Source of the DNA: Candidatus Eiseniibacteriota bacterium
GTDB taxonomy: Bacteria > Eisenbacteria > RBG-16-71-46
Direction of reading: 5' to 3'
Length of the DNA stretch: 33,584 bases
NCBI GenBank assembly: GCA_041483195.1
Contig: JBGPFC010000038.1
Coordinates: forward strand, 1-33,584
Shown: positions 1,694 to 18,454 of the stretch, piece by piece
Numbering within the stretch: the first letter of the stretch is position 1
Layout of the letters: each line of letters begins with the position of its first letter
Notes under the pieces: generated by a model
Told to the model about the DNA's origin: nothing
Database searches by the model: none
What the model saw: the letters and a program-made list of their open reading frames with translations, nothing else
Program-made: the position numbers and the translations under genes

Positions 1694-2494
1694 ATGACCG
1701 CGCCCGCGCCGCGTGAACGCTGGGCGGATGCGGACGCCTACGAACGCTACATCGGGCGGTGGAGCCGCGCGGTGGCGGCCGAGTTCGTCGCCTGGCTCGC
1801 GCTGCCACCGGACCGGCACTGGGTGGACGTGGGCTGCGGCAGCGGCGCGCTCTCCGCCACCCTGCTCGCGCGCTGCGGCGCGAGGCGGGTCACGGGCATC
1901 GATTATTCGCTGGCGTACGCGGCCGGAGCCCGCCGGTCGCTCGGGGACGCGGCGGCCCGCTTCGCGGCCGGCGACGCGCGGTCCCTTCCGTTCCGCGACG
2001 CGAGCTTCGACGCGGCGGTTTCGGGCCTCGTGCTGAACTTCGTACCGCGGCCCGATGCGATGCTCGCGGAGATGGCGCGGGCGACCCGCGACGGCGGCAC
2101 CGTGGCGGCGTACGTCTGGGACTACGCGGACGGTACGCAGCTCCTTCGCCATTTCTGGGACGCGGCGGTCGCGCTGGATCCCGGAGCCCGCGATCTCGAC
2201 GAGGCCCGGCGCTTTCCGATCTGCGGTCCCGAACCGCTCGCCGCGTGTTGCCGCGCGGCCGGCCTGCGCGACATCCGGGTGCGCGCGATCGACGTGCCGA
2301 CCGTCTTCCGGGATTTCGACGACTACTGGTCGCCGTTCCTGATGGGCCAGGGCCCCGCGCCCGGCTACGTGAGCGGGCTCGACGAGGCGCGACGCACGGC
2401 GCTCCGCGACGCGATCCGCGCGCGGCTGCCCGTCGCTCCCGACGGGTCGATCGCCCTCGCCGCGCGGGCGTGGGCGGCGATGGGCCGCCGCTAG
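1694..2494 (+). CDS. Class I SAM-dependent methyltransferase
   Basis: ATG at 1694, 5 nt after the ettA stop, inside ORF 428..2494; AYERYIGRWS, motif I VDVGCGSG, GDARSLPF..FDAAVSGLVLNF. Confidence 0.88.
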   Translation: MTAPAPRERWADADAYERYIGRWSRAVAAEFVAWLALPPDRHWVDVGCGSGALSATLLARCGARRVTGIDYSLAYAAGARRSLGDAAARFAAGDARSLPFRDASFDAAVSGLVLNFVPRPDAMLAEMARATRDGGTVAAYVWDYADGTQLLRHFWDAAVALDPGARDLDEARRFPICGPEPLAACCRAAGLRDIRVRAIDVPTVFRDFDDYWSPFLMGQGPAPGYVSGLDEARRTALRDAIRARLPVAPDGSIALAARAWAAMGRR

Positions 2495-2521
2495 GGGGCC
2501 GAACCGTGCCCGCGCCCGCGT

Positions 2522-2551
2522 TTGACGGGTTTCGCGCGGGCCTCCTATCTT
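2522..2551 (+). promoter_or_regulatory. Sigma70-type promoter for ispG (probably leaderless)
   Basis: TTGACG (2522-2527), 18-nt spacer, TATCTT (2546-2551), 7 nt before the GTG at 2559; no SD. Confidence 0.6.
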
Positions 2552-2558
2552 CTTCCCC

Positions 2559-3803
2559 GTGCCTCTAGTCCACATCGAGAGTCCACGCGCCGGGCAGCGG
2601 CGCCGCAGCGTCGTCTGTACGATTGGAGACGTTCCGGTCGGCGGGACGCACCCGATCGTGGTGCAGTCCATGACCAACACCGACACCCAGGACCCCGCCG
2701 CCACCGCGGCGCAGGTGCGATTGCTCGCCGAGGCGGGCTCGGAGCTGGTGCGGGTGACGGTGAACACGCGCGAGGCGGCCGCCGCGGTGCCCGAGATGGT
2801 GCGGCGCGTGCGCGATGCCGGAGTCGGCGCGCCGATCGTCGGGGACTTCCACTACAACGGGCACCTGCTGCTCACCGAGTACACGGCGTGCGCGGCGGCG
2901 CTCGACAAGTATCGCATCAACCCGGGCAACGTCGGGGTCGGCGAGCGTCACGACGAGAATTTCCGGCGCATGATCGAAGTCGCGATCGCGCACGGCAAGC
3001 CGGTCCGGATCGGCGTCAACTGGGGCTCGCTCGATCGCGCGCTCCTCACGCGGCTGATGGACGAGAACGCGAAGCGCGCGAACCCGGTCGCGGACCGTGA
3101 GGTGGTGCTCGAGGCGATGCGCGAGAGCGCGCTGCGTTCCGCCGAGCTCGCGGAGCGCTTCGGCCTCGCGCACGATCGCATCATTCTCTCGGCGAAGGTG
3201 AGCGACGTGCGCGACCTGATCGCGGTCTACCGCGCGCTCGCATCCGCCTGCGATTATCCGCTGCACCTGGGGCTCACCGAGGCCGGGCTCGGCACCAAGG
3301 GAATCGTCGCGACCACCGCGGCGCTCGCGGTCCTGCTGGTCGAGGGGATCGGCGATACCGTCCGTACCAGCCTCACTCCGGCGCCGGGCGGCGACCGGGC
3401 CGAGGAGGTGCGCGTCTGCCAGCAGGTGCTGCAGTCACTCGGCATCCGCCACTTCACCCCGCAGGTGAGCTCGTGCCCCGGCTGCGGCCGCACCACCAGC
3501 ACCTACTTTCAGGAGCTGGCGACCGACGTCACCGCCCACATCCAGAGGCGCATGGCCGAGTGGCGCACGCGATACCCCGGCGTCGAGTCCCTGCGGGTCG
3601 CGGTGATGGGCTGCGTCGTGAACGGACCCGGCGAGAGCAAGCACGCCGACATCGGCATCTCGCTCCCCGGCACCGGTGAGAATCCGAGCGCGCCGGTGTT
3701 CGTGGACGGCAGGCTCGAGACGACGCTCAAGGGCGACGCGATCGCTGCGGACTTCGCGCGTCTGCTCGACGCGTACATCGAGCGTCGCTACGCCGCTTCC
3801 TGA
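2559..3803 (+). CDS. ispG: (E)-4-hydroxy-3-methylbut-2-enyl-diphosphate synthase
   Basis: [38 protein letters not shown], 4Fe-4S ligands CPGCGRT and [12 protein letters not shown]. Confidence 0.96.
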
Positions 3804-3818
3804 GGAGCGCCGGCCCGC

Positions 3819-4895
3819 TCAGCGGATCAGCATCACGCTGCGCGTGAACGACTGCTGGCCGACTCGCAGCGACGCGAAGTAGATCCCCGCCGGAAGGCCC
3901 GCGGCCCGCAGCGGAGCGCTGTGGTCGCCGGGCGGCAGGTCGGCGTCCACGATGCTCTGCACCAGGTGTCCGGCCAGATCGTAGAGGCGCAGCCGCACGT
4001 GCGCGCCGGCCGGAAGCGTGAAGCGCAACGTGCTCTCGATCTGGAACGGATTGGGCCACGCCCCCTGGAACGCGATCGCCGCGCCCGGCTGCGTCACGGC
4101 CGTCGAGCCCGGCGCGACGCTCGGGGGCGGCGCGAGATCGGGCGCCGCGCCCAGCAGGCCGGGGCGATAGAGCCGCACGATCGCGTCGATCCGCCCGCTC
4201 TGGCCCGGCGTGAACTCCGATGGGGACGCGTCGATGCCGTAGTCCGTATGGAGCATTCCGAGGTAATGCCCCACCTCGTGGGCCAGCGTGTGGCCCAGGT
4301 CGTCGTTCGGAACGGAACCGCCCGGCAGCGAGCCGTAATGGATCACGACGCCGTGCATCGGATCGTCCTCGGGAAACGAGAACGGGAAGGTCGACCAGCC
4401 CAGCAGGTCGCGGCCCGGCAGGCAGGTGTACACGTTGAGACGATGCGTGGGATCGATGGCGAGCGCCTGCTTCGCTCGCTTCTCGTCGCCGGTGCCCGGC
4501 AGCAGCCTGAACCACGCCCGGCTCTCGGTGCGATCGATCGACGCCAGCGAGAAACGATAACCGGTCCCGAGAAAGTCGCGGTTGAGCTCGCGAACCTGCT
4601 CGTTGATCTGGTCGATGCCGACGTCGCCGAGATCGCCGGAGTGAATGACGTGGAAGGCGATCTGGATGGTTCCGCCCGGCGAGCGCGCGCCGGCCGGGCC
4701 GCGTGCGCGCCGCAGGCTCGCGTCCATGCGCTCGAGCTCGAGGGGCGTCGGTTCGGGCGTGCCGCAGGTGCGCGCCGCGACGGCGCCCGGCGCCTGCGCC
4801 TCCGGAGCCGCGGCGCCGGCGGTCGCGGTCGCGGCGACCGCACACACCAGCAGCGCGAGCGTACCCGCGATCAGGCGATGGAAGGGCGATGACAT
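3819..4895 (-). CDS. Secreted M43 (ulilysin/pappalysin-like) zinc metallopeptidase-like protein with T9SS type-A C-terminal domain; catalytic domain internally shortened
   Basis: ATG 4895 gives a signal peptide (MSSPFHRLIAGTLALLVCAVAATATA); cysteine-switch-like RTCGT; LLGWSTFP, GVVIHYGSLPGG, HEVGHYLGMLH; tail WPNPF...LYDLAG...LPAGIYFASL. Confidence 0.8.
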   Translation of the reverse strand: MSSPFHRLIAGTLALLVCAVAATATAGAAAPEAQAPGAVAARTCGTPEPTPLELERMDASLRRARGPAGARSPGGTIQIAFHVIHSGDLGDVGIDQINEQVRELNRDFLGTGYRFSLASIDRTESRAWFRLLPGTGDEKRAKQALAIDPTHRLNVYTCLPGRDLLGWSTFPFSFPEDDPMHGVVIHYGSLPGGSVPNDDLGHTLAHEVGHYLGMLHTDYGIDASPSEFTPGQSGRIDAIVRLYRPGLLGAAPDLAPPPSVAPGSTAVTQPGAAIAFQGAWPNPFQIESTLRFTLPAGAHVRLRLYDLAGHLVQSIVDADLPPGDHSAPLRAAGLPAGIYFASLRVGQQSFTRSVMLIR

Positions 4896-5052
4896 GGCTC
4901 GACTCGATGGGTTGGCCGGAGGCCCCGCGCGGAAGCGACGGTCCGCTCCCCGCCGGGACCAAGGCCGATGCATCGATTCTGACAGAGGACGGCGGGCGCA
5001 TTCCAGCGCCAATTCGCCGGGCGGAGGGCGGCTTCCGGGGCCGATGTGGCGC

Positions 5053-7002
5053 TCAGCCCGCGGCGATCGCATCGAGCGCGCGCCGCGCGAGCGAGGTGAG
5101 CGAAGGATCCCGCGCGCCCATGATGAGCACGAGGTCGCCCTCGCGCGCCTCCCGCGCGAGCCGCGCGATCAGCCACTCGCGGCTCGGCGCGAACTCGGCT
5201 TGCGCCCCGCGGGCCGCGATGTCGGCGGCGATGTCGGCGGCGGAGAAGTCGCGCTGCGCCGTGCCTCCCGCGTAGAAGACCTCGAGCAGCCAGAGCCGGT
5301 CGTCCGGCGTGAGCGCGCCGGCGAAGGTCTCGACGAAATCGCGACGCAGGAACCGCGTGGGGCCGTATCCGTGCGGCTGGTAGACCGCGAGCACGCGCCG
5401 CGCGCGAGCGTGCGCGGCCGCTAGCGTCGCCGCGATCTTCGCCGGATTGTGGGCGAAGTCGTCGACCACCTCGACGCCGCGAGCGATTCCCACCGTCTGG
5501 AAGCGGCGCGCAACGCCGCCGAATTCCGCGAGCGGCGCCGCCATCGCATCGAGCGGAACCCCGAGTGCGCGGCAGGCGGCGATCGCGGCGAGCGCGTTCT
5601 CGACGTTGTGCCGGCCGGGCGCCGGAAGGGTGAAGCGCACGCCGTCGACCTCGAATCGGCTTCCCGCGGGGTCGAGCGCGACCGCGGTGCCCCGCACCGT
5701 CGCGCGCGGTCCGAGGCCGAACACGCTCGCCCCGTCCGCGAGCGGGACCAGGCGCTCGTCCTCCCCCACCACGAAGGCTTCGCGGGTGCGCGCGCGAAAC
5801 GTCTCGAACATCGCCGCCACCTCGCTCATCTCCTTGTGGTCGCGCTGCAGGTTGAGCACGACCCCGATCGCCGGCGAATAGCGCACCAGCGAGCCGTCGC
5901 TCTCGTCGGCTTCGACGACCAGCAGATCGGAGTCTCCGGCCCACGCGTTGCCGAGCGCGCGCTCGCCCTTGAGCAAGAGCAGCTCGCCTCCGGTGATGAT
6001 CGAAGGCCCGCGGCCCGCGCCGCGCAGGATCTCGAACGCCATCGCGGCGACCGTCGACTTGCCGCTGGTGCCGCTCACCGCGAGCGTGCGATGGATCGCG
6101 ACGAAATGGGCGAGCAGCTCGGAGCGGTGCACAATGGGGAGGTCGCGCGCGTGCGCGGCCGCCACGTCCGGGACCTGCGACTCGACGGCGGTCGAGACCA
6201 CCAGCGCTGCGCAGTCGCCGGAAAGGCCGCTGCCGTCCTGCGGGTGGATCGCGATGCCGAGCCGCTCCAGCACGGCCCGCTCCGGCGCACGCTCGCCGCG
6301 ATCGAAGGCACGGTCGCTCCCGCTCGCGCGACCCCCGCGCATCGCCTGAAACTGGGCGAGCGCGCTCATCCCGCTCCCGCCGAGTCCCGCGTAGTGAAAC
6401 CGGCCCTGGCCGAGCGGATCGGGCATCGGCGACTCTCCGCCCTCCAGCACCAGCACGCCGTCGCCTTCCCGCACGCGTTCGAACAGATCGATCACGTCCT
6501 GGTTCGCCATGCGGACGCATCCGTGCGAATCGGGGGAACCGAGCCGCGCCTCGTGATTGGTGCCGTGCACGTAGATGAAGCGCTCGAGCGAATCGAAGCC
6601 GGGCCCGCGATTCACGCCGGGCTCGAGGCCTTCGAGGGTGAGCACGCGGGTGAGGATGAGGTCATCCTCGCGCGGCTCGCCGCGCCACACCTTCCCGGTC
6701 GGCTCGCGGCTTTCGAACACCGCGCCGCGCGGCGCGCCCGCGCCGATGCGCGCGTGCACGCGATGCCAGCCGGGCGGCGTGCGCAGCGAGCCGGACGCCC
6801 CGCCGATTCCCGCGGCGGCCGTCGAAACCGGGTACTCCGCCATGACCCGCCCCCCGTCGATCCACGAGAGCCGCTGGCGCTCGACGTCCACCACCATCAT
6901 TCGATCGGGAAGCGCGCGGAATGGCGCGCGCGGGCGTCCGAGTGCGGATCGCGCGAGACCGGGCGCACGCGAGTCATGCGCGGTGCGGGGGGACGAGTCC
7001 AT
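5053..7002 (-). CDS. Fusion of YkuD-family (ElsL-like L,D-carboxypeptidase/transpeptidase) domain and MurC/Mpl-like Mur ligase
   Basis: One uninterrupted ORF; N-part TPPGWH, DLILTRVL, FIYVHGT..SHGCVRM; C-part GLGGSGMSALA, GTSGKST, VVEADESDGSL, NLQRDH, GRHNVEN, DDFAHNP; start ATG 7002 (GTG 7020 also possible). Confidence 0.85.
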   Translation of the reverse strand: MDSSPRTAHDSRAPGLARSALGRPRAPFRALPDRMMVVDVERQRLSWIDGGRVMAEYPVSTAAAGIGGASGSLRTPPGWHRVHARIGAGAPRGAVFESREPTGKVWRGEPREDDLILTRVLTLEGLEPGVNRGPGFDSLERFIYVHGTNHEARLGSPDSHGCVRMANQDVIDLFERVREGDGVLVLEGGESPMPDPLGQGRFHYAGLGGSGMSALAQFQAMRGGRASGSDRAFDRGERAPERAVLERLGIAIHPQDGSGLSGDCAALVVSTAVESQVPDVAAAHARDLPIVHRSELLAHFVAIHRTLAVSGTSGKSTVAAMAFEILRGAGRGPSIITGGELLLLKGERALGNAWAGDSDLLVVEADESDGSLVRYSPAIGVVLNLQRDHKEMSEVAAMFETFRARTREAFVVGEDERLVPLADGASVFGLGPRATVRGTAVALDPAGSRFEVDGVRFTLPAPGRHNVENALAAIAACRALGVPLDAMAAPLAEFGGVARRFQTVGIARGVEVVDDFAHNPAKIAATLAAAHARARRVLAVYQPHGYGPTRFLRRDFVETFAGALTPDDRLWLLEVFYAGGTAQRDFSAADIAADIAARGAQAEFAPSREWLIARLAREAREGDLVLIMGARDPSLTSLARRALDAIAAG

Positions 7003-7065
7003 GGCCGCGCACTCTGCCACAAGCCGGCGCGCCGCACGAGCCGCGAGCGCCCGCCGGCGCGTGAA

Positions 7066-7440
7066 TCAGCTCGCCTCGGGACCGCCGGACCAGCCGAGCG
7101 CGAGCACGAGCCATCCCGCGATGAAACACGCGCCGCCGATCGGGGTGATCGCCCCGTAGCCACGGGTACCGGTCAGCGCCAGCGCATCGAGACTCCCCGC
7201 GAACAGGAGAATGCCGGCGACGAACAGCCAGCCCGAAGCGAGCAGCGCCCGTCGCGGCCGCTGCTCGAGCGCGATCGCGATGACGATCAACGCGATCGCA
7301 TGGAACATCTGCCAGCGCACCGCGGTCTCGAGCACCGCGAGCCGGTCGGCGGGAAGCCGCGAACGGAGCGCGTGGGCGCCGAATGCGCCGGAGAGGACCG
7401 CGAGCATCGCGAACGCGGCTCCGAGCCTGGCGAAGATCAT
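7066..7440 (-). CDS. DUF423 (YgdD/TMEM256) family membrane protein
   Basis: GAFGAHAL, TAVRWQMFHAIAL, GILLFAGSL, GAITPIGG family motifs; ATG at 7440. Confidence 0.9.
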   Translation of the reverse strand: MIFARLGAAFAMLAVLSGAFGAHALRSRLPADRLAVLETAVRWQMFHAIALIVIAIALEQRPRRALLASGWLFVAGILLFAGSLDALALTGTRGYGAITPIGGACFIAGWLVLALGWSGGPEAS

Positions 7441-7474
7441 TCGCGGAGGATACGACCCACGGCCGCCCGACGCG

Positions 7475-7507
7475 AAGCCCCCGCGACTTACCACGTCACG
7501 GGGGCTC
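7475..7507 (-). terminator. GC-rich hairpin after tRNA-Asn, possible terminator or processing stem
   Basis: Minus strand GAGCCCCCGTGAC-GTGGTAA-GTCGCGGGGGCTT, 13-bp stem including G-U pairs; no real U-tract. Confidence 0.5.
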
Positions 7508-7515
7508 TCACAAGC

Positions 7516-7590
7516 TGGCTCCTCGGGTAGGATTCGAACCTACAACCCTCCGGTTAACAGCCGGATGCTCTACCATTGAGCTACCGAGGA
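7516..7590 (-). tRNA. tRNA-Asn(GTT)
   Basis: TCCTCGGTAGCTCAATGGTAGAGCATCCGGCTGTTAACCGGAGGGTTGTAGGTTCGAATCCTACCCGAGGAGCCA: cloverleaf, GTT anticodon, TTCGAAT T-loop, encoded CCA. Confidence 0.97.
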
Positions 7591-7654
7591 AAAGAGGATG
7601 GGCGCCGCGGAGTGAACCGGCGGCGGGCGATGTCATCGGCAAGACAGGCGACGC

Positions 7655-7683
7655 AGTTTAGGAGCGTGCGCCGCCTGGGTCAA
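7655..7683 (-). promoter_or_regulatory. Sigma70 promoter of tRNA-Asn
   Basis: TTGACC (7683-7678), 17-nt spacer, TAAACT (7660-7655), followed by GC-rich GCGTCGCC. Confidence 0.7.
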
Positions 7684-7761
7684 GCGAACCGCGCGCGGGC
7701 GCGCGCGATCGATGGTCCCCGCGAAGTCGTGAGGCTGCGGCCCCGAGCGTGACCGCCGTTC

Positions 7762-9138
7762 TCAACGACCCGTGGGCGCCGAGGGCTCTCCGTCCCCTTC
7801 GAGGAGCGGCAGGAACGCGCTGAAGCGCGTGCCGGTACCCGGCTCGCTCCAACACTCGATCCAGCCACCGTGCTCCTCGAGGATGTCCTTGACCACGGGA
7901 AGCCCGAGGCCCGTGCCCTGGCCCGAGTCCTTCGTCGTGAAGAACGGCTCGAAGATGCGGGCCATCACCTCCGAGGTCATGCCATGGCCCGTGTCGTGGA
8001 CGGTGAGCTCCACGAGCTTCCGCTTGGGCGCCCCGGGCTGGGCGCTCCGCCGCGGAGATCTGCCGGGTACGCTTCGTGTCGCGAGCGTGAGGCGTCCGCC
8101 ATCGGGCATCGCGTCGCGCGCGTTGATGCACAGATTGATCAGCATCTGGCCGAGGCGCGAGGCATCCGCCATCACGAGCGCCGGGGCGGCCTCCAGCCGG
8201 GTCTCGATCTCGACCCGCGGCCCGATGGTGGGCGTGAGAAATCGAATCGATTCCACCACCAGTGCGTTCAGATCGAGGGGGCGAAGATCGAGCGTCGGAC
8301 GCCGGCTGAACAGCAGCAGCTGGCGCGTGAGCTCCGCCGCGCGCAGCGCCGCGCTCTCGCTGTCGCGCAGGCCCGGCACGATGGAATGATCGGCAGGCAG
8401 CTCCGCGAGCGACAGCGACAGGTTTCCCAGGATCACGGTGAGCAGGCTGCTCAAGTCGTGCGCGATTTCGCCCGACCGCTCGCTCACGAGATCGGCCTTC
8501 GATGGCCGCCGCGCTCCCACCGCCCGGCGCCGGCGTTCGCCGTTGACGGCGATGGAAACGAGCAGTCGGGAGAAATCCCCGCCCGCGTCTCGGACCGGCA
8601 CCGCCTCGATCGTCCAGGACACCGGACGCAGTCCCACCCACTCGATCTCGACGTCGGAGTCGCGAACGCGCTCCCCGGCGGCGAGTGCGCGATTCACGAG
8701 CGCCTCCACCGCGCCTCCCGCGAAATCCGGAAAGTGCTCGGAGAGCCGGGTGCCGTCGAGGGGCCGCTCTCCCCGATAGGGCTCCAGCAGCCGCGCGTAG
8801 GCGCGGTTCCAGGCGAGCGACTCGAGCCCGGGCACCGCCACCAGCAGAACGCCGGTCTCGATGTGATCGAGCATTTCCTCGAACCGGCCGCACGTGGTGC
8901 GCAGCGCGAAGACTTGACCGATGAGGCCGCCGAGTTCCTGGGCATTCAACGCGCTCGCGCCGGATTCCGGGCCCGCTCCCTCTGGAGTCGAGCGATCCGC
9001 GGACAGGCTCTCGCCCTCCGGAGCCCGCAGGGTGTCCGCTGGAGACGAAGGCGTGCCTTCCCAATTACGCGTCATCGTGAGGTGCACCGATTGGCCGGGC
9101 TCGTTCGCGCAACAGTGATTGTTATGAAGCAAGACCAT
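7762..9138 (-). CDS. Cytoplasmic PAS-like sensor histidine kinase (CckA/NtrB-like core, no receiver)
   Basis: H-box EIAHDLSSLL, N-box QMLINLCINARDAM, DTGHGM, FEPFFTTK, GTGLGL; no transmembrane segment; start uncertain (9138 or 9075). Confidence 0.85.
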   Translation of the reverse strand: MVLLHNNHCCANEPGQSVHLTMTRNWEGTPSSPADTLRAPEGESLSADRSTPEGAGPESGASALNAQELGGLIGQVFALRTTCGRFEEMLDHIETGVLLVAVPGLESLAWNRAYARLLEPYRGERPLDGTRLSEHFPDFAGGAVEALVNRALAAGERVRDSDVEIEWVGLRPVSWTIEAVPVRDAGGDFSRLLVSIAVNGERRRRAVGARRPSKADLVSERSGEIAHDLSSLLTVILGNLSLSLAELPADHSIVPGLRDSESAALRAAELTRQLLLFSRRPTLDLRPLDLNALVVESIRFLTPTIGPRVEIETRLEAAPALVMADASRLGQMLINLCINARDAMPDGGRLTLATRSVPGRSPRRSAQPGAPKRKLVELTVHDTGHGMTSEVMARIFEPFFTTKDSGQGTGLGLPVVKDILEEHGGWIECWSEPGTGTRFSAFLPLLEGDGEPSAPTGR

Positions 9139-9178
9139 ACCGCAAGCAGAATAGTTTTCCAGATATTTTTGCGACCAA

Positions 9179-10216
9179 TCAGTTATTTGTCTTGAATTGG
9201 CTTCGCGCCGTGGAGGTCAGCGCGGCGGCGAGCGTGAGTTCGCGTGGCCGCTCCGCGTAGCCGGGATGGCTGCGCTGCGGCCGGTGTTCGAGATGCCAGC
9301 GCACGACCGACGGGAGGTAGCCGCTTATCGGGGAGGCCGCGGATCCGAGCTCGAGTGCCGAGCGCGCGGGGTCGAGCACCGACGACCATCGACCCGCGAA
9401 CGGTGAACAGGCCGGCGAGAGTCCCGCGCGCCGCATCTCGTCCCACGACGCGGCGACGAAACGCGGCGACACGCCCGCCGCATGCGCGATCCGCTCGAGC
9501 AGTTCCCGAAGCGGCAGCGTCTCCCGTGGAGCGAGGTTGAGGACCGTGGACCGCGCCGGCTCATGCACCAGGCACACGAGCGCGCGGGCGAGATCGCCGG
9601 CATGAAGGTGCCCCATCGGCTGCTCGCCGCCCGCCGGCAGCAGGATCGCCCCCCCGTCGAGCATGCGTTCGAGATATGCCCACAGTCGCAGGGTCCCGTC
9701 GCCTTCGCCCTGAACGATCGGGAGTCTCAGGATGGTCGCGCGCACCGCGTGCGTTTCGAGCAGGGCGAGCGCCGCCGCCTCCGCGCGCCGCTTGCCGATG
9801 CCGTAGCGCCACTGGGCGTGATCGAACGTGCCCGGCGGCGGCTCCGGCATGAGGGGCCGGTCGCTGTCCGCCTCGCGATAGGGTGGCTTCGCGCCATCGG
9901 TCACGAGATACACCTGCCCGCTCGAGATCAGGATGTATCGCCCGAGCGCCGCGCGCGGCGCGCCGAACAGACACTCCACGTCGCCGGCATCCCAGGCGAG
10001 GAAATCCACGGTGAGGTCGAAGCGCCGGCCGTCGATGACGCGAGCGAGCGACTCGCGGTCGGCGCGATCGGCGGTGATGCGCTCGGCGCCGTCGGCCGGC
10101 CCGGTGCCGCGCGCGAGCACGCTCACCCGGTGCCCCGCCGCGAGCAGCGCACGCCGCGCGTGGCCGCCGAGGAATCCGGTGCCCCCGAGCAGCAGGATCG
10201 AGCGGGATGCGCTCAC
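9179..10216 (-). CDS. NAD-dependent epimerase/dehydratase family (atypical SDR)
   Basis: ILLLGGTGFLG Rossmann motif, YILISSGQVY, YGIGK (YxxxK), ILRLPIVQG; GTG 10216 preferred, ATG 10288 possible. Confidence 0.85.
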   Translation of the reverse strand: MSASRSILLLGGTGFLGGHARRALLAAGHRVSVLARGTGPADGAERITADRADRESLARVIDGRRFDLTVDFLAWDAGDVECLFGAPRAALGRYILISSGQVYLVTDGAKPPYREADSDRPLMPEPPPGTFDHAQWRYGIGKRRAEAAALALLETHAVRATILRLPIVQGEGDGTLRLWAYLERMLDGGAILLPAGGEQPMGHLHAGDLARALVCLVHEPARSTVLNLAPRETLPLRELLERIAHAAGVSPRFVAASWDEMRRAGLSPACSPFAGRWSSVLDPARSALELGSAASPISGYLPSVVRWHLEHRPQRSHPGYAERPRELTLAAALTSTARSQFKTNN

Positions 10217-10321
10217 TGCGGAATCCGGCGCGGGACGGGGCGAGGCATGCTCGAAGCCTAGCGCCTCGGTCCCCCCTCGCGCGAACATCGCGCGCGACGC
10301 CCGAGCGGGGGCTGGTCGGGG

Positions 10322-10960
10322 TCAGGCGGCGCGGGGCTTCGGAGCGGTGCGCGCGGACCGGCAGGCGGTGCATGCCTCCTCGACCGTCGCACCCGCGGCG
10401 TCACGGTCGAAGAACCGCTCCGGCTCGACCCACTCCCCATCCTGGCCGCGGAGCTTTCCACAGCTGGAGCAACGCGCGGGGGGGCGGGCGCGCCGCTCGA
10501 GCTCGACGCGGGCGCTCTCGAGGTCGGCGTTGCTGAGCTCGAGCTCGCCGAGCTTCTGCCTGAGCTCCTGCGTGAGCAGCACGATGCGCAGCCCGGCCCG
10601 CACGCGGGCCATGAGCTCGCCGTGGTCGCAGGGCTTGACCAGATAGTCGTCTGCACCGGTCTCGAGCCCGAGCAATCGATCGCTGATCTCGCCCTTCGCG
10701 GTGAGCAGGATGAAGTAGGGTGCAGCCTCGCGCAGCCCGGTCTTCACCGACTGACACAGCTCGAGGCCGTCCACCTGCGGCATCATCCAGTCGGACACGA
10801 CCAGGTCGGGCTCGGAGTCCACGATCGCCTTCATGCCGTCGCGGCCGTCCGCCGCCGTGAACACCTGATAGCCCTCGGCGCTGAGCCGCTTCACCAGCAC
10901 CCGCTGGAAGAAGGGGTCGTCCTCGACGACCAGCACCCGGATGTCGCCGGTCGCCTTCAC
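10322..10960 (-). CDS. Response regulator: receiver + coiled coil + C-terminal CxxC...CxxC domain
   Basis: GTG 10960 overlaps the upstream TGA (GTGA); VLVVEDD, VVSDWMMP, ILLTAK, GADDYLVKP; tail RCSSCGKLRGQDGEW...ACTAC. Confidence 0.88.
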   Translation of the reverse strand: MKATGDIRVLVVEDDPFFQRVLVKRLSAEGYQVFTAADGRDGMKAIVDSEPDLVVSDWMMPQVDGLELCQSVKTGLREAAPYFILLTAKGEISDRLLGLETGADDYLVKPCDHGELMARVRAGLRIVLLTQELRQKLGELELSNADLESARVELERRARPPARCSSCGKLRGQDGEWVEPERFFDRDAAGATVEEACTACRSARTAPKPRAA

Positions 10961-11358
10961 GCGGCAGCCTCCAGGAAATTGCGCACCTGCAGGACGAACG
11001 CCGCGTGGTCCACGATCGGCTTTGCGACGTAGTCGTCGGCGCCGCTCTCGGCGAGCAGGCGCTCGGCGTCGCCGCGCATGGCGTGCGCGGTCGCCAGCAC
11101 CACCGGAACCCCGACCGTCTGCGGATCGGACTTGAGCCGCTGGCACAGCTCGACGCCATTGATCGGGCGGCCCTGCCAGTGCGAATTGGTGAGCGAGACG
11201 TCCATCAGCACCAGGCTCACTCCCCCTCCACGCAGCATGTGGAAGAGCTCGTCCGGGGACTCGGTCACCGTCACGCTCACGCCGCAACGCTTCTCGAGCA
11301 GCTTGCGGAACAGCGTCGCGTTGTGCGGGTCGTCCTCGACCACGATCACATGCGTCAT
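10957..11358 (-). CDS. Single-domain response regulator (DivK/DevR-like)
   Basis: ATG 11358 overlaps the kinase stop (ATGA); 133 aa; IVVEDD, VLMDVSL, LATAHAMRGD, GADDYVAKP. Confidence 0.9.
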   Translation of the reverse strand: MTHVIVVEDDPHNATLFRKLLEKRCGVSVTVTESPDELFHMLRGGGVSLVLMDVSLTNSHWQGRPINGVELCQRLKSDPQTVGVPVVLATAHAMRGDAERLLAESGADDYVAKPIVDHAAFVLQVRNFLEAAA

Positions 11359-14300
11359 GCCGCCCGCTCCATTCCACCGTCCGGCTCGCGCGTCGCGGCG
11401 GCCGCCTGTCCGTGCCGAACGGCTTCGGCCGCGACCTGCAGGTGCCAGTCGATGATGTGCGGAAGCAACTGGGGATTGTCGTGCACCGTCATCTTGGGAA
11501 GCACGTCGAGCACCAGGCCCTGCTCGAGCAGCCGGCGTTCCTCCTCGTTGCGGCCTTCCGGAAAGTTCGTGAGCACCAGCACCGGCATCTCCGACCCGAT
11601 CCCGGTCAGCGTCATCTCGCGCAGCACGTCGTAGCCGCTCACCTCGGGCATCATGAGATCGAGCAGCAGGAGATCGAATCCACGCGGCTGCGTGCGGAGC
11701 GCGTGAAGGCACTCCTCGCCGTTCTGCGCGTGCTCGACGTAGAAGCGGCCTTCGGGAAGCACCTTCCGCACGTAAGCTGCGACCGACGGGTCGTCGTCGG
11801 CCATCAGGATGCGCACGGTCCGGCCTTCCACGGATCCGAGCAGTTCCTGAATCTTGGCGAGCAGCGCGCCGCCGTCGATCGGCTTCATGAGATGCTCGGG
11901 GCGCCGCGCGAATGCCGTCGACTTGAGCTTGTCGCGCAGCTCGTCGTCGAAGCCGGTTACGAAGATGAGCGGGATGTGGCGGGTCTGGGCATCCGACGTC
12001 ATCCGCTCCGCGAGGTCCCACCCGGTGCGAAGCGCCGCTCCCTCGGGACAGGTCAGCGCGTAGTCGAGGACAACGATCGAGGGGCGCAGCCGCCGCGCGA
12101 TCGCCCATCCGCCTTCGGCGTGCGCGGCCTGCACGGTGCGATATCCGTTCTGATGAAGGAGCGAGCTGAGATAGCGACGGAACGGGGCGTCGTCTTCGAC
12201 GACCAACACCAGCGCGCCGCCGCTCGGGCCCTCGATGCGGTCCGTGGGGTGGTCGTCGGCCGGAGCGTGCTCTGCGCCCTCCGGCCAGGTGGGCAGCGAG
12301 AAGTACATGCGCGTGCCCTTCCCGAGCCCATCGCTCTGAGCGCCGATGATGCCGCCCATCAATTCGACCAGGCTGCGCGAGATCGCGAGCCCGAGACCGG
12401 TGCCGCCGTACTTGCGCGTGGTGCTGCCATCACCCTGCGTGAACTTCTCGAAGATGAGCTTCTGCCGGGTGGCATCGATCCCGATGCCGGTGTCGACGAC
12501 TTCGAACATGAAGTGGCCGAGCTCGGGATGCGCCCCGGCGCGCACCGTGATCGTCCCGCTGGGCGTGAACTTGAGGCTGTTCCCCACCAGGTTGATCAGG
12601 ATCTGCTTGATCTTGCCGAAATCGCCGCGCACCGTGAACGTGCGGCCCTCCGGCGGCCGGAAGGTGAGCGTGATGCCCTTCTGCGCCGCCTGAACGTGGG
12701 TCACCGTGTAGACCTCGTCGAACAGCGCGTGAACGTCCACGCGTTCGATGTCGAGCGTCAGCTTGCCGGCCTCGATCTTCGCGATGTCGAGCACGTCGTT
12801 GATGAGCCCGAGCAGATGGCGCGAACATTGGAGGGCCTGCTTCATGAAGTCCCGCTCTTCATCCTTCGAATCGCACAGCCCATCGAGCACCAGCTGGAGA
12901 AAACCAATCATGCCGTTCAGGGGGGTGCGCAGCTCGTGCGACGTGTTCGCGAGGAACTCGCTCTTGAGCCGCGACGCCTCCTCGAGCTGGGCGTTCACCT
13001 CTTCGAGGCGGCGATTGCTGATCTCGAGGCCGTCGGCGAAGGACCGGATGCGCTCCTCGGCCTGCACCCGCTCGCTGACGTCGCGAACGATCGCGGTGTA
13101 GAGCATGTCCACGTCTTCGCCCGCCCGGCCCAGCGAAAGCTCGACCGGCAGCACCGTGCCGTCCGCCCGGAAGGCCTCGGTGCGCGATACCGCGCCCGGA
13201 GCCGGGAGCAGGATTCCACCGGTCGCGGAGGGGGTGCCCCAGTGAAGAAACCGATGCAGCGGCTGCCCCTCGATCTCGGCGGCGGGCCGCCCGAACAGAT
13301 TCTCGGCGGCGCGGTTCACGCTCACCATGCGCCCCTCGCGATCGAAGGTGAGGATCGCGTCGAATGCGGTGTCGAAGATCGCCTGCACGCGCGCGGCATG
13401 GCGGCGCGTGACCTCGGTCTCACGCTCGGCGAGTCCGCTCGCGTATTGTCGCCGCCAGAACCAGAACGCACCGAGCGCGAGCAGCAGCATCGCGAGATCC
13501 AGCGCGAGCAAGCCCACGATCGTGCCACGCATGCTCTCGGTCATCGCGGCCCGATCTACCTGGGTCACGAGACCCCAGCCGCGCTCGGGCAGGTAGCGGG
13601 TCACGGTCCACAGCGTGTGCTGGTTCGCGTCGGTGGCCTCGACGCTGGACTCCACGCCCTCGGCGGCGATGGCGGCCGGCCGCAGCAGCGGCGTATCCAG
13701 CGGGGCGCGCTGTCCGGCGTGCAGTCCCAGGCTCGCGGGCGGCGAGGTGAGACACACGATCTCCTGGCCGGCCCGGCGCACGAGGTAAGCGCCGGCGGTG
13801 GGACCGAATCCCGGCCAGCTCATGAGCAGCGGGAGCAGCACGTCCTCGACGCTCGCCTGAAACACCATCACGGCGGACGGGTGGCCGGGGGCGGCGCCCG
13901 GCACCGGGATCGCGAGCGCGAGCAGCTGCGGCGCTCCCCCCTCTGCGGAGACCGCTTCCATCACGCTCTGCCCGCTCGCCGCCGTGCGCGCGGCGAGGTC
14001 GCGACCGGTCTGGCCCCCGGCACCCGGATCGTCGCGGGTGGTGAGCACCTGCGACCCGTCGGACCTGAGCAAGTCGATCGCGTGGAACTGGAAGGCGGCC
14101 GCCGCGCGCTGGAGCTCGCGGCGCAATGCCGCGCTTTCGGCGGGCGAGAGGGTGCCGGCCGCCGCGTCGTACGCCCGGGTCTGGAGCGCGGCCTGTTCGG
14201 CGACGAATCGCGCCTGGTGCTCGAACTGCCACAGGAGGTCGCGGACCTCCTCGCGCTTCGCGTCGGTGTGGGCCGCCAGCTGGCCCCAGCGCTGCCGCAC

Positions 14301-14519
14301 CAGGTGGGTGCGCGCGCTCTGGAGGATGCCGAAGTTGAGCAGGGTGACGCTGATCGCGGCGAGCGCGATCAGCCCGGCGGCGATGCGCCGCGACTCGTGC
14401 CGCGACTCCGCTCCCCGCGAGAAGAGAAAATGCGCAGCTTGACCCCCGCCCCGCGGGGAAGGGTTCGGGGTGGCCGTGGAATCCGGCCGCAGCAGGGCGG
14501 GTGGATCAAGGGGGGGCAT
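11355..14519 (-). CDS. Membrane hybrid sensor kinase (TM, Cache-like periplasmic domain, TM, PAS, HisKA, HATPase, REC, REC)
   Basis: Two hydrophobic helices; PAS (AIFDTAFDAIL..VNRAAENLFG); SEFLANTSHELRTPLN; LINLVGNSLKFT, DTGIGI, YGGTGLGL; two receivers with phospho-Asp (VLDY, LLDLMMP). Confidence 0.92.
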   Translation of the reverse strand: MPPLDPPALLRPDSTATPNPSPRGGGQAAHFLFSRGAESRHESRRIAAGLIALAAISVTLLNFGILQSARTHLVRQRWGQLAAHTDAKREEVRDLLWQFEHQARFVAEQAALQTRAYDAAAGTLSPAESAALRRELQRAAAAFQFHAIDLLRSDGSQVLTTRDDPGAGGQTGRDLAARTAASGQSVMEAVSAEGGAPQLLALAIPVPGAAPGHPSAVMVFQASVEDVLLPLLMSWPGFGPTAGAYLVRRAGQEIVCLTSPPASLGLHAGQRAPLDTPLLRPAAIAAEGVESSVEATDANQHTLWTVTRYLPERGWGLVTQVDRAAMTESMRGTIVGLLALDLAMLLLALGAFWFWRRQYASGLAERETEVTRRHAARVQAIFDTAFDAILTFDREGRMVSVNRAAENLFGRPAAEIEGQPLHRFLHWGTPSATGGILLPAPGAVSRTEAFRADGTVLPVELSLGRAGEDVDMLYTAIVRDVSERVQAEERIRSFADGLEISNRRLEEVNAQLEEASRLKSEFLANTSHELRTPLNGMIGFLQLVLDGLCDSKDEERDFMKQALQCSRHLLGLINDVLDIAKIEAGKLTLDIERVDVHALFDEVYTVTHVQAAQKGITLTFRPPEGRTFTVRGDFGKIKQILINLVGNSLKFTPSGTITVRAGAHPELGHFMFEVVDTGIGIDATRQKLIFEKFTQGDGSTTRKYGGTGLGLAISRSLVELMGGIIGAQSDGLGKGTRMYFSLPTWPEGAEHAPADDHPTDRIEGPSGGALVLVVEDDAPFRRYLSSLLHQNGYRTVQAAHAEGGWAIARRLRPSIVVLDYALTCPEGAALRTGWDLAERMTSDAQTRHIPLIFVTGFDDELRDKLKSTAFARRPEHLMKPIDGGALLAKIQELLGSVEGRTVRILMADDDPSVAAYVRKVLPEGRFYVEHAQNGEECLHALRTQPRGFDLLLLDLMMPEVSGYDVLREMTLTGIGSEMPVLVLTNFPEGRNEEERRLLEQGLVLDVLPKMTVHDNPQLLPHIIDWHLQVAAEAVRHGQAAAATREPDGGMERAA

Positions 14520-14623: not shown

Positions 14624-16492
14624 TTATTTTTGCCAGTATCTGGGGCGCACGTTTCCAGGCAGGACGCGCTTGCGCAGGCGCAGGCTCGCGGGCGTCACCT
14701 CGAGCAGCTCGTCCTCTCGAATCCACTCGAGCGCCTGCTCCAGCGAGAGATTGCGCGCCGGGAGCAGGTGGACCCCTTCATCGGAGGTGGAGGCGCGCAT
14801 GTTCGTGAGCTTCTTCTCCTTCACGATGTTCACGTCGATGTCTTCTTCCCGCGCGTTCTCCCCGACGATCATGCCTTCGTACACGCGGCGGCCGGGCTCG
14901 ACGAACATCTCGCCCCGGTCCTGCACGTGCTCGATCGCGTAGGCCGTGGTCTTGCCGGACCGGTCGGACACCAGCGCCCCGGTGGTGCGGTGGGGGATCT
15001 CGCCCTGCCACGGCTCGTATCCGTCGAAGATGTGGTTCAGGAGGCCGGTGCCGCGCGTGTCGGTGAGGAACTGGCTGCGGAATCCGATCAGCCCGCGCGA
15101 TGGAATGCGGAACTCGAGGCGGACGCGGCCGGTGCCGTGGTTCACCATGTTGGTCATCCGGCCCTTGCGGTTGCCGAGCTTCTGCGTGACGACGCCGACG
15201 TAAGCTTCGGGGCAGTCGATCACGAGCTTCTCCATCGGCTCCTGCTTCGTGCCGTCGACCAGGCGGACGATGACCTCGGGCTTGCTCGCCGCCAGCTCGT
15301 AGCCCTCACGTCTCATCATCTCGATCAGGATCGCCATCTGCAGCTCGCCGCGCCCCGAGACCTTGAAGATGTCGGGCGTGTCGCCGGCCTCGATGCGGAT
15401 ACCGACGTTGGTGAGGATCTCGCGATCGAGGCGCTCGCGGAGGTTGCGCGACGTGACGTACTTCCCCTCCAGGCCGGCGAACGGGGAATTGTTCACAGAG
15501 AACATCATGCTGACCGTCGGCTCGTCGATCACGACCCGCTCCAGCGGCCTCGGATCGTCGGGGTCGCCGATGGTCTCGCCGATGTTGACCTCCTCGAATC
15601 CCGCGAGCGCGACGATGTCTCCGGGCCCGGCCTCCATGACCTCGACGCGCTCCAGTCCCTCGAAGGCGTACAGGTTGGTGACCCGGGTGCGGGTGACGCT
15701 GCCGTCGAGCCGGCACAGCGCGACGTCCTGCCGCGCCCGGACGTGGCCGTTGAAGATGCGTCCGATCGCGAGCCGGCCCACGAAGTCCGAGTAGTCGAGA
15801 TTGAGGATCAGCATCTGCAGCGGGCTCATGCGGTCGTAGCGGGGCGGGGGGATGGTGCGGATGATCTCCTCGAACAGCGGCAGCAGCGGCATGTTCTCGC
15901 CGTCCGGCGTGAGCCGGCAGACGCCGTCGCGCGCGATGGTGTAGAGCACCGGGAACTCGAGCTGGCTCTCGTGGGCGTCGAGGTCGATGAACAGGTCGTA
16001 GATCTCGTTCAGCACCTCCTGCGGGCGCGCGTCCTTGCGGTCGATCTTGTTGATGACCACGATCGGCGGCAGCGAGAGCTCGAGCGCCTTCTTCAGCACG
16101 AACCGGGTCTGCGGCAGCGGGCCCTCGCTCGCATCCACCAGCAGCAGCACGCCGTCCACCATCTTCAGCGTGCGCTCGACCTCGCCGCCGAAATCGGCGT
16201 GGCCCGGGGTGTCCACGATGTTGATCTTGTGCTTCCCGAATCGCACGGCGGTGTTCTTGGCGAGGATGGTGATGCCCTTCTCGCGCTCGAGGTCGTTCGA
16301 GTCCATGACCCGCTCGACGACCTCCTGGTTCGCGCGGAACACGCCGCTCTGCCAGAGCAGGGCGTCGACCAGCGTCGTCTTGCCGTGATCGACGTGGGCG
16401 ATGATCGCGATATTGCGCAGGTCCTCGCGAGCGGCGCGCGCGCCGTCGGCAGGCACGGCGCCGGTGCTCGCGGCGGATGACGTCGTATCCAA
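14624..16492 (-). CDS. typA: Translational GTPase TypA/BipA
   Basis: [74 protein letters not shown] start. Confidence 0.96.
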
Positions 16493-16502
16493 GTGATCCC
16501 CC

Positions 16503-17723
16503 CTAATGATCCGAGGCCGCCGGATGCTCGCCGGCGTCCAGATTGTCGCGCAGCCGCGGCCAGTAGCCGGGGTGCACGGTGAGCGCGTCGTAGGAATAGA
16601 CGGCGAGCGTCGAGAAGCCCAGCGCTCGTGCCCCTTTGATCTTGGCCGCGGCGTCCGCCGGCGGCGTGTTGTAGACCGCGATGCCCGGCACGACGCGGCC
16701 GTCGGTTCCGAAATCCGAGGCGAAGCCCTGCAGCTGGCGCATCACGGTCTGCACATCCGGCGCGTAACACATCGCGAACGCGCGGTCGATGAGGCCGTCG
16801 CGCAGCCACGCGCGCCAGGTCTGCGCATGATCGCGCGCGGCGCTCACGGTGTCTGCGAGCACGGCGGCGCTGATCGAGAAGCCCGCGCGGGATCCGACCG
16901 AGTCGCGCACCTCACGCACCACGGCGGTCACCTCCTCCGAGCGGAAAGCGCTCCACGCGGAGTCCACCCCCGGCCTCGCAGCCACCGAGACGCGATCGAA
17001 GCGCGCCGGATCGACCCCGCTGCGCAGCGCGAACTCGGCGCGGGTCGTCGGGTCGAACCCGGTGCCGGCACGGGGCTCGCGGATGTAATCGAGATGTATG
17101 CCGTCCACCGGATAACGCTCCACGATCTCCTTCGCCACCGAGCCCAGATACGCCCGTACCCCGGGATGGGCCGGAGACAGATACACGCCTTCCACCATCA
17201 GGCGCCTGCGCTCCCGCATCCCGAGCGCCGACATCCGCCGCCCGTCGCGCAGCCGCGCGATCCATTCCGGATGCGCGTTCATCACGTGGCGCGGATCGCG
17301 CGGGGGCCGCGGTCCGGACCACACCAGCAGGCAATTCATCCACGCGTGCACCTCGAGTCCCGCCGCGTGCGCGAGGGCGACGATCTCGCCGAGCGGATCG
17401 AAGTCCGAACGCGGCAGGGCCTCGGCCCGCGGCAGCAGGTCCGAGCGATAGTAGGCGTCGCCCCGTCCCACGACCTGCACCAGCAGGCCCCGCACTCCCA
17501 TCGCCCGCGCGTCGCGCACCACTCCCCCGATCTGCGCCGAATCGAGCAGCGCGGTGCGCACCACCCACACGTATTCGAAGCGCCGGTGCCCGCGCGCCGC
17601 GACCCCGGCCGAGTCTGCCGCCGGCGCCCGGGCCGAGTCGGCGGGCGCGAGCCCGAACGCGGAATCCGGTGCGACCCCGGCCCGAGTCGCCGGCGGGAGA
17701 GCGGCGAGCGCCGCCAGCATCAA
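16503..17723 (-). CDS. GHL10/DUF187 (YddW/DigH-like) glycoside hydrolase, probably exported
   Basis: [57 protein letters not shown]-terminus ambiguous (see findings). Confidence 0.85.
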
Positions 17724-17782
17724 CCCCAGCGCCCGGCCGGCGCGGCGCGCGCGGCCAGGAACCGCATGATCGCCTTCAGCGC

Positions 17783-17817
17783 GAACGCGGGCGGAAAGTG
17801 GCCTCCCGCCCGCGTCC
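17783..17817 (-). terminator. Long hairpin downstream of rplQ (end of ribosomal super-operon)
   Basis: ACGCGGGCGG (17785-17794) and CCGCCCGCGT (17806-17815) form a perfect 10-bp inverted repeat, extendable by G-U pairs on the minus strand; no U-tract. Confidence 0.55.
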
Positions 17818-17842
17818 CGTTCGTCCCGGCGTGGTGGGCGCG

Positions 17843-18406: not shown

Positions 18407-18454
18407 GGATCGCTTCCTCTCTCTCGCGGCGCCGGATCGCGCGCGTCCCCGTTC

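Follow-up and report, generated by a model that had tools for sequence, protein, structure and literature searches.

The window considered here is the whole stretch of DNA that was analysed, a contig of 33,584 nucleotides (JBGPFC010000038.1) from a Candidatus Eiseniibacteriota bacterium, in which a gene at 5053..7020 on the minus strand fuses an ElsL-like YkuD domain, a predicted cytoplasmic L,D-carboxypeptidase, to a three-domain Mur ligase of a MurC-like subfamily. We consider that the protein as a whole probably functions in the recycling of murein stem peptides, as suggested by its sequence and by the genes that accompany its ligase in other genomes. In the proposed scheme, one cytoplasmic two-enzyme protein would reuse cell-wall (murein) stem peptides; the YkuD domain would trim tetrapeptide to tripeptide, the ligase half would attach the trimmed tripeptide to UDP-MurNAc (MurNAc, N-acetylmuramic acid) in an ATP-dependent reaction, and MurF would then complete the pentapeptide precursor. 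The ligase would take the place of Mpl, which the organism lacks, and the MurC encoded in the dcw (division and cell wall) cluster would make the precursor de novo. Salvage of murein peptides is the best explanation of the ligase because it is extra to MurC and has a remodelled pocket, excludes Mpl, is tied to two unrelated L,D-carboxypeptidases and is linked to an importer in two lineages. The two activities are inferred, as are the peptide that serves as substrate and the sequence of the steps.

The fusion gene is a single stop-free frame of 655 codons from GTG, and four Pfam domains lie in this one frame, in agreement with the preliminary description of the sequence, which had proposed a stop-free junction of YkuD and a three-domain Mur ligase. 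Its parts are the following.

5053..7020, minus strand: whole fusion frame, with GTG at 7020, the likely start ATG at 7002 and the stop codon at 5053-5055
6448..6900, minus strand: residues 41-191, ElsL-like YkuD domain, predicted cytoplasmic L,D-carboxypeptidase (Pfam YkuD, 72.3 bits, cut-off 23.4)
6517..6567, minus strand: YkuD active-site stretch from His152 (6565-6567) to Cys168 (6517-6519), invariant residues
6403..6447, minus strand: residues 192-206, linker between the two enzymes, of variable length among relatives
6097..6399, minus strand: residues 208-308, Mur ligase N-terminal (UDP-sugar binding) domain (Pfam PF01225, 48.7 bits), with the subfamily motif GSDRAFD
5572..6078, minus strand: residues 315-483, Mur ligase middle (ATP) domain (Pfam PF08245, 44.8 bits)
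6052-6072, minus strand: P-loop GTSGKST in the middle domain
5110..5508, minus strand: residues 505-637, Mur ligase C-terminal domain, for the incoming amino acid or peptide (Pfam PF02875, 77.5 bits)
5353..5463, minus strand: substrate-pocket motifs DDFAHNPAK (5437-5463) and QPHGYGPTR (5353-5379), located by alignment with MurC and Mpl

The ATG at 7002, which is residue 7 of the GTG-started frame, is preferred as the start over M41, where the public gene call begins (P0002, 615 aa), because residues of about 20 to 40 are conserved among the homologues. Residues 1-40 are polar or charged and, judged by eye, contain no hydrophobic stretch, consistent with the earlier claim that the protein has no signal peptide. 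A cytoplasmic location is also favoured by the joining of the YkuD domain to a ligase that depends on ATP. The His/Cys motif of the YkuD domain, said earlier to be intact, consists of H152 in YVHGTN and H166-G167-C168 in SHGCVRM, and all four residues are invariant across 37 aligned fusions. The junction between the two halves is genuine and not an assembly artefact: in all four of the other metagenome runs compared, a contig crosses 6403-6447 with 0 differences and 0 gaps. Among the relatives, P0042 and P0098 have long Ala-rich insertions at the linker. A confident AlphaFold2 model was made with a 37-row alignment (mean predicted local distance difference test, pLDDT, value 89.1; predicted template modelling score 0.73); only residues 1-16 are of low confidence, and the pLDDT dips at the linker. 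The predicted docking of the YkuD part onto the ligase part had a score of 0.00, which gives no verdict either way on an interface or on channelling.

The N-terminal half was assigned by profile searches and phylogenetic analysis. A search of the whole genome recovered the same place, 6448..6900, and on the NCBIfam ElsL profile NF040925 the domain scored 128.3 bits over profile positions 7-157 of 164, compared with 23.5 bits for the best L,D-transpeptidase model. The curated cut-off of NF040925, a narrow model of type 'exception', is 270 bits and was not reached by the domain, nor was it reached by any of the ElsL-like matches (87-154 bits) found in 34 of 81 genomes of Verrucomicrobiota, a phylum for which Dai et al. 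(PMC8649774) report ElsL orthologues. Fourteen standalone verrucomicrobial ElsL-like proteins, two of which may have hydrophobic N-termini, scored 118-182 bits against a hidden Markov model (HMM) of the fusion N-domain and share its conserved blocks. These blocks include TPxGWH, IGxxAP, DxILxRxLxLxG and YxHGT, which the preliminary description had matched to the ElsL subfamily and whose positions are conserved in the 14 proteins. In a tree of 36 YkuD domains (ElsL of A. baumannii not among them), the N-domains of fused and split forms were intermixed with the leaderless verrucomicrobial ElsL-like proteins, and the exported E. coli LdtA-E were split off (Shimodaira-Hasegawa-like approximate likelihood ratio test, SH-aLRT, 95; length 0.7); E. 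coli YafK and the only other YkuD protein of the host genome were on very long branches. By sequence, the N-domain is ElsL-like and nearer to ElsL than to the exported L,D-transpeptidases. ElsL requires the cysteine that aligns with Cys168, its C138S variant being reported to be inactive (PMC8649774).

The ligase half scored 283.8 bits on the MurC model TIGR01082, below the cut-off of 335.1, and 115.8 bits on the Mpl model TIGR01081 (64.8 and 51.2 in the genome search), whose cut-off is 388.7; its identity to MurC 9ir5/9ir6 is 30%. It had first been called an 'Mpl/MurC-like' ligase, but it is MurC-like and not an Mpl, since the Mpl score is far below the cut-off and the Mpl-specific loops are absent. 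The residues that bind ATP, Mg and UDP are conserved with MurC in the alignment, and in the alignments of the fusions K321, T323, E370, D372, E373 and H395 (ATP/Mg residues) are invariant, as are N472, R505, R506, D520 and H524 among the 37 fusions. The incoming amino acid is bound in H. influenzae MurC (HiMurC) by Tyr346, His348, His376, Arg377 and Arg380 (Das et al., PMC3060825). The corresponding residues in the fusion, mapped by motif spacing through the E. coli and host MurC and not by direct alignment with HiMurC, are Phe522, His524, His550, Gly551 and Pro554, so that both histidines are kept and both arginines are replaced; the MurC of the host genome itself retains all five (DDYGHHPTE and QPHRYTRT). 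With the L-Ala-binding arginines of MurC replaced, the pocket for a single L-Ala has therefore been remodelled.

The subfamily has a signature that is absent from MurC and Mpl, comprising GSDRxFD, PQDGS, DHKE, AHNPAK, QPHG(F/Y)xPTRFL (which includes an insertion of four residues), YYAGGT and GARDPSL, to which GTSGKST is added in the comparison with MurC. We surveyed these motifs in the best 150 representatives from 1.84 billion proteins clustered at 50% identity, and 137 of these were full-length (at least 430 aa). [PL]HG[FYW] was found in 124 and GA[RK]D in 134 of the full-length representatives, and none of the 137 had the MurC motifs PHR[FY] or HGKTT. A tree of 59 rows separated seven MurC sequences and E. 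coli Mpl from all 50 subfamily rows (SH-aLRT 99, length 0.48). Note that only this unrooted split was read; a tree rooted with MurD, in which the subfamily looks paraphyletic, was set aside for its outgroup branch of 2.95. Motifs and tree together indicate a MurC-like subfamily that is distinct from both MurC and Mpl.

Since MurC gives the best match by HMM, in the PDB and by fold, since 283.8 bits is near the MurC cut-off, and since the standalone form is publicly annotated as MurC, the ligase might instead be a second MurC isozyme adding L-Ala, Gly or L-Ser, with the YkuD domain in a separate cytoplasmic role and the fusion reflecting a shared link to wall metabolism. We regard this as very improbable, as both L-Ala-binding arginines are lost, PHR[FY] is missing from all 137 representatives and a canonical MurC is already present in every genome checked; an isozyme would also leave unexplained why the ligase is repeatedly linked to an oligopeptide importer and to L,D-carboxypeptidases of two unrelated kinds, and why it excludes Mpl.

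The canonical MurC genes were identified as follows. The host genome (G000) is 96.8% complete in 93 contigs, and its canonical MurC gene lies between murG and ftsQ in the dcw cluster, on another contig than the fusion, and scored 521.9 bits against the cut-off of 335.1. All five genomes from other phyla that have the subfamily ligase (Geothrix, Holophaga, and metagenome-assembled genomes, MAGs, of Nitrospiria, Chitinophagales and Verrucomicrobia) also keep a canonical MurC over the cut-off, and their subfamily ligases scored 282-322 bits on the MurC model. The subfamily ligase is therefore always an extra one in the genomes checked. A search of the host genome with TIGR01081 detected no Mpl over the cut-off, and a profile search detected no Peptidase_S66 (the LdcA type of L,D-carboxypeptidase, hereafter S66). 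AnmK, an AmpG-like permease (186 bits, below the model cut-off) and one YkuD gene besides the fusion are present.

The genomic context, namely what occurs with the ligase and beside it, is the strongest evidence for the recycling role. We searched 200 genomes of the host phylum besides the host genome itself, taking a match of the fusion protein at E<1e-80 as the ligase subfamily. The ligase was found in 137 of the 200, and 136 of these also have an ElsL-like or an S66 gene, the exception being a genome that is 70% complete (G200). Among the 63 genomes without the ligase, 47 have neither carboxypeptidase and 16 have one (an ElsL-like part only in G049, S66 in the other 15). By family, the counts were as follows.

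Family f1: ligase 75/86, ElsL-like 76/86, S66 0/86
Family f3: ligase 3/3, ElsL-like 3/3, S66 0/3
Family f16: ligase 3/3, ElsL-like 3/3, S66 0/3
Family f5: ligase 1/2, ElsL-like 1/2, S66 0/2
Family f7: ligase 33/41 (one more cut by a contig end), ElsL-like 0/41, S66 39/41
Family f10: ligase 11/12, ElsL-like 2/12, S66 12/12
Family f2 (including the unpublished genome G014): ligase 7/9, ElsL-like 2/9, S66 9/9
Family f8: ligase 1/6, ElsL-like 0/6, S66 5/6
Family f14: ligase 2/3, ElsL-like 0/3, S66 2/3
Family f15: ligase 1/2, ElsL-like 1/2, S66 1/2
Families f4, f6, f9, f11, f12, f13, f17 and f18 (33 genomes): no ligase, no ElsL-like, no S66

The placement of the ElsL-like match was obtained by cross-reading the genome searches, with a check of open reading frames and HMMs at 20 loci. 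In 74 genomes the match falls within a frame of 500 aa or more, and in 14 it adjoins the ligase or is cut from it by a contig end; one (G049) was left unassigned. In the host phylum the ElsL-like domain was never seen away from the ligase, and the ligase does occur without the ElsL-like domain, in which case S66 is usually present. At least one genome of the host family (G008), which is 100% complete, gave no match for the fusion, for an ElsL-like domain or for S66, and the system is therefore dispensable within the family.

Of the 81 Verrucomicrobiota genomes, 26 carry an Mpl-like gene (288 bits or more, with 13 above the cut-off); all 26 have a standalone ElsL-like gene and none has S66. A strong match to the subfamily ligase (E<1e-80) was present in 16, and the two ligases were mutually exclusive: none of the 16 has an Mpl-like gene, and none of the 26 has a strong subfamily match. 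Matches between E 1e-56 and 1e-75 were assigned to neither the subfamily nor MurC and were left out of the 16. Eight genomes have an ElsL-like gene without an Mpl-like gene, and six of these have a ligase match at E<=1e-66. The ligase was not found within 1.5 kb of the ElsL-like gene at any of 14 verrucomicrobial loci. As a separate observation, S66 (30 genomes) and the Mpl-like gene never occur together in the 81 genomes.

We also searched the frames of the 111 fetched ligase and fusion loci iteratively, with the S66 frame of a Verrucomicrobia locus (L130) as the seed. An S66 gene was found directly downstream of the ligase in three loci, from MAGs of Verrucomicrobia (L130), Kiritimatiellia (L122) and Latescibacterota (L126). 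All three are among the 34 ligase-only loci, and both S66 domains were confirmed with Pfam in each. On the Verrucomicrobia contig (L160, G205:C36) the ligase and the S66 gene belong to a cluster at 2301-11532, all on one strand, with an oligopeptide permease (Opp) type importer.

2301-3953: SBP_bac_5 oligopeptide-binding protein
4254-5219 and 5318-6739: two permeases, the second with OppC_N
6786-8882: fused double ATPase with oligo_HPY
8948-10360: subfamily ligase
10522-11532: S66

The Kiritimatiellia locus (L122 1-5468) has the permease, ATPase, ligase and S66 genes in the same order. The cluster of Opp importer, ligase and S66 may be a self-contained cassette for the uptake and reuse of murein peptides. 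Among 22 diverse loci (54 neighbour frames), no wall gene was recurrent except the Opp ATPase and S66 in L122 and L130.

The role in murein recycling put forward in the preliminary description, a predicted function, is strongly backed by both the phyletic pattern and the gene neighbourhoods, and the computational checks that the description proposed all came out in its favour. A number of observations weigh against the role. The ligase is nearer to MurC than to Mpl both in sequence and in fold (TIGR01082 283.8 versus TIGR01081 115.8 bits; 171.7 bits for MurC in the PDB versus 73.2 bits for Mpl 3hn7; template modelling score of the AlphaFold2 model 0.86 to MurC 1p3d versus 0.70 to Mpl 3hn7). 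The Mpl-specific motifs are GI(C/G)GTFM, SGP and (S/T)AFFDKRSK (PMC3060825), and in our alignment the GI(C/G)GTFM and AFFDKRSK features are absent, GLGGSGM being found instead of the former and no insertion at the place of the latter. The ligase tree includes only one Mpl sequence, that of E. coli, on a long branch. In the host phylum 15 genomes have S66 without the ligase, and the co-occurrence counts come from related, non-independent genomes and carry no test statistic. Of the 16 ligase-bearing Verrucomicrobiota, four have S66, two have an ElsL-like gene and ten have neither, which cuts against a strict pairing, and 31 of the 34 ligase-only loci have no S66 gene in their flanks. No Amidase_2 (AmpD) gene by which the peptide would be freed from the anhydro-muropeptide was detected in the host genome. 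Finally, none of the genes around the fusion in the window (DUF423, tRNA-Asn, IspG, a histidine kinase and a secreted metalloprotease-like gene) has to do with the cell wall.

The last point would also suit a target outside murein turnover, for example another peptide conjugate with D-amino acids that the pair builds or edits, the YkuD domain acting as a cytoplasmic transpeptidase or exchange enzyme and not as a carboxypeptidase. Such a target would draw on the exchange and transpeptidation that YkuD enzymes can perform besides hydrolysis (PMC8649774) and on the use of Mur-ligase folds in the cyanophycin, F430 and pseudomurein pathways, the models of which gave weak matches here. We give it only the slimmest chance, because the UDP-binding N-domain and the MurC-like fold are retained, because both kinds of partner, the ElsL-like and the LdcA type, are murein tetrapeptide carboxypeptidases, and because the phyletic exclusion with Mpl fits a role in murein.

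The order of the two steps has to be considered separately, and overall we put recycling with trimming before ligation at about even odds. The reverse order, in which the ligase takes tetrapeptide, or tri- and tetrapeptide alike, and the YkuD domain then trims UDP-MurNAc-tetrapeptide as a product editor, seems unlikely to us. A tethered carboxypeptidase would suit product editing as well as the preparation of the substrate, and E. coli LdcA also cleaves UDP-MurNAc-tetrapeptide. The reverse order would also agree with the poor acceptance of tetra- and pentapeptide by Mpl (5.9 and 5.3 versus 260 per min for PaMpl; PMC3060825, Table 3), and with the accumulation of toxic UDP-MurNAc-tetrapeptide that follows the loss of ElsL in Acinetobacter because Mpl uses the untrimmed peptide, as reported in PMC8649774. 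According to the same source, however, ElsL acts on disaccharide tetrapeptide in vitro, i.e. upstream of the ligation, and in each of the 50 fused loci described below the carboxypeptidase domain is the N-terminal one, a weak point since the order of domains need not follow that of the reactions. With trimming first, the fusion or the tight adjacency of the two halves would keep untrimmed tetrapeptide out of the dead-end product UDP-MurNAc-tetrapeptide, and by virtue of the fusion the trimming enzyme is present wherever the ligase is.

The YkuD and three Mur_ligase domains recur together well beyond the window. In a collection of 5.8 billion proteins, the best 120 matches (615-698 aa, 68-100% identity) all carry these four Pfam domains. 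A scan of one genome per species returned 79 loci, which were classified with HMMs from each half: 50 are fused, always with the YkuD domain at the N-terminus, in eight the two halves are neighbouring genes that overlap, and 21 have only the ligase. In the split relatives the frames are of about 190-280 aa, and many of the listed proteins are of about 194 aa. Two cultured organisms carry the fusion, Geothrix fermentans DSM 14018 (L095) and Holophaga foetida DSM 6591 (L097). So do MAGs with the labels Candidatus Eisenbacteria, Holophagaceae, Fibrobacteraceae and Nitrospirota (the last at about 45% identity), and a Chitinispirillaceae protein (P0245) is likewise fused. The public name of the fusion is 'L,D-transpeptidase family protein', and that of the standalone ligase is 'UDP-N-acetylmuramate--alanine ligase' (MurC). 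In both trees the fused and split forms share the same two groups, Eisenbacteria with Holophagae and Nitrospirota with Chitinispirillaceae/Chitinivibrionales, and the halves therefore seem to travel together. Fused forms stand in at least three places of the ligase tree, forced by well-supported branches, and this scatter would reflect either several events of fusion or fission or transfer between phyla. A candidate for a distant fusion, P0374 (749 aa), aligned only in patches, like a frameshifted call, and was dropped.

Close relatives (65-72% identity) were also found in MAGs labelled Methyloceanibacter, Alphaproteobacteria, Hyphomicrobiales, Proteobacteria and Saccharimonadales, and the oddly labelled loci are L052, L054, L055, L057-L061, L100, L103, L105-L107, L109, L111 and L113. 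Labels of the Methyloceanibacter, Alphaproteobacteria or Saccharimonadales kind are probably due to mis-binning or mislabelling and not to the true distribution. Some copies of the fusion (L087 2929-4977; G025:C13:189452-191476; G046:C6:785454-787158, L033) are broken by frameshifts that put parts of the ligase or of the YkuD domain into different frames, either through sequencing error or through decay.

The immediate neighbours of the fusion gene in the window are the following.

7066-7494, minus strand: DUF423 membrane protein, directly upstream of the fusion gene
7516-7590, minus strand: tRNA-Asn (GTT), likewise upstream
3819-5072, minus strand: immediately downstream of the fusion gene, a protein that looks secreted and has the zinc-protease motif HExxH

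The protein of 3819-5072 has a weak match to Por_Secre_tail (type IX sorting; 19.9 bits against a cut-off of 27) and no further Pfam match. Among 90 related loci searched with tblastn, DUF423 recurs beside the fusion in 9, the protease in 14, sometimes as two copies, and IspG in 10; the titled loci with these recurring neighbours are mostly Eisenbacteria or mislabelled bins. The neighbourhood in the window offers no hint of function.

Farther along the window, a signalling run on the minus strand at 9179-14519 consists of an NAD-dependent epimerase, two response regulators in overlapping frames (10322-11377 and 10957-12108) and a hybrid histidine kinase of 1054 aa with PAS and two receiver stretches. 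It is followed at 14624-33167, on the same strand, by a BipA/TypA GTPase, a GHL10 glycosyl-hydrolase-like gene and then part of the ribosomal protein cluster, with RpoA, S4, adenylate kinase within a stop-to-stop frame of 765 aa, S3, L2 and L3. Many long spurious frames are seen on both strands because the GC content is 64-73%.

The reuse of peptides in Proteobacteria needs Mpl and a cytoplasmic L,D-carboxypeptidase (LdcA, LdcV or ElsL). To our knowledge, it has been worked out almost only in that group, and bacteria without Mpl are usually assumed not to reuse the peptide. By MAG label, the ligase lineage described here occurs in Eisenbacteria, Holophagae, Nitrospirota, relatives of Fibrobacterota, Bacteroidota, Planctomycetota, Elusimicrobiota and part of Verrucomicrobiota. 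We are inclined, with some reserve, to see in it a third lineage of UDP-MurNAc ligases, next to MurC and Mpl, with which many non-proteobacterial phyla would salvage murein peptides. It would have acquired L,D-carboxypeptidases of two unrelated kinds on more than one occasion, those of the ElsL type through fusion and those of the LdcA type within an operon for an Opp importer. If so, peptide recycling is far commoner than the distribution of Mpl implies, a third functional class is added to the MurC and Mpl ligases, thousands of genes annotated as MurC or L,D-transpeptidase are misnamed, and the closure of the recycling loop in several large environmental phyla is explained. The fusion acts as a 'Rosetta stone' that ties an uncharacterised MurC-like ligase to trimming, and in other phyla the operons with LdcA and Opp genes point the same way independently. 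If the proposed role is correct, the fusion also offers a single polypeptide for studying how toxic tetrapeptide precursors are avoided, and its presence in the cultured, harmless Geothrix fermentans and Holophaga foetida puts an experimental test within reach.

A literature search, with subscription journals and supplements outside its scope, found no paper on the fusion or on the ligase subfamily, in line with the earlier statement that no characterised example was known; the fusion itself is neither rare nor new to the databases, being present under generic names in RefSeq genomes of cultured Acidobacteriota. The logic of the pathway is already known, and the fused architecture and the ligase subfamily appear to be undescribed in the literature searched. 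ElsL of A. baumannii (NF040925; PMC8649774) resembles the N-terminal half in its YkuD domain with the catalytic Cys, in the predicted cytoplasmic reaction from tetra- to tripeptide and, as far as the N-terminal half can be judged by eye, in the lack of a leader, but it stands alone as a protein of about 165 aa and acts together with a separate Mpl, whereas here the domain is fused to the ligase. Dai et al. defined the orthologues as single-domain proteins of 105-200 aa and discarded longer ones (PMC8649774), and fusions (655 aa here) would therefore have been hidden from that survey.

Mpl (TIGR01081; E. coli b4233; Psychrobacter 3hn7, PMC3060825) shares with the fusion ligase its three domains, the proposed reaction of UDP-MurNAc with tripeptide and ATP, the sequence DDFAH (DDYGH in MurC), the lack of the two MurC arginines, a partner L,D-carboxypeptidase and, in certain lineages, an importer of the Opp type, but E. 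coli Mpl groups with MurC in the tree, apart from the fusion ligase subfamily. MurC (TIGR01082; 1p3d, 9ir5) is the closest in sequence and fold and has the same ATP, Mg and UDP residues; the fusion ligase differs from it in lying outside the dcw cluster, in its own signature and in the replacement of Arg377 and Arg380.

The murein tripeptide route of E. coli consists of MppA-OppBCDF, LdcA (Peptidase_S66) and Mpl. The Verrucomicrobia and Kiritimatiellia clusters share its logic of importer, L,D-carboxypeptidase and ligase, although the E. coli genes lie scattered, with Mpl as the ligase, and in the window a carboxypeptidase of the unrelated YkuD type forms one chain with the ligase. It is common for Mur ligases to be fused to an enzyme that acts at an adjacent step of the pathway, and Verrucomicrobium spinosum is said to have a fusion of MurB and MurC. 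Fusions such as MurC-Ddl (NF011171) and MurE-MurF (NF008896) join biosynthetic steps, whereas the fusion in the window would join a degradative trimming step to a ligation step in salvage.

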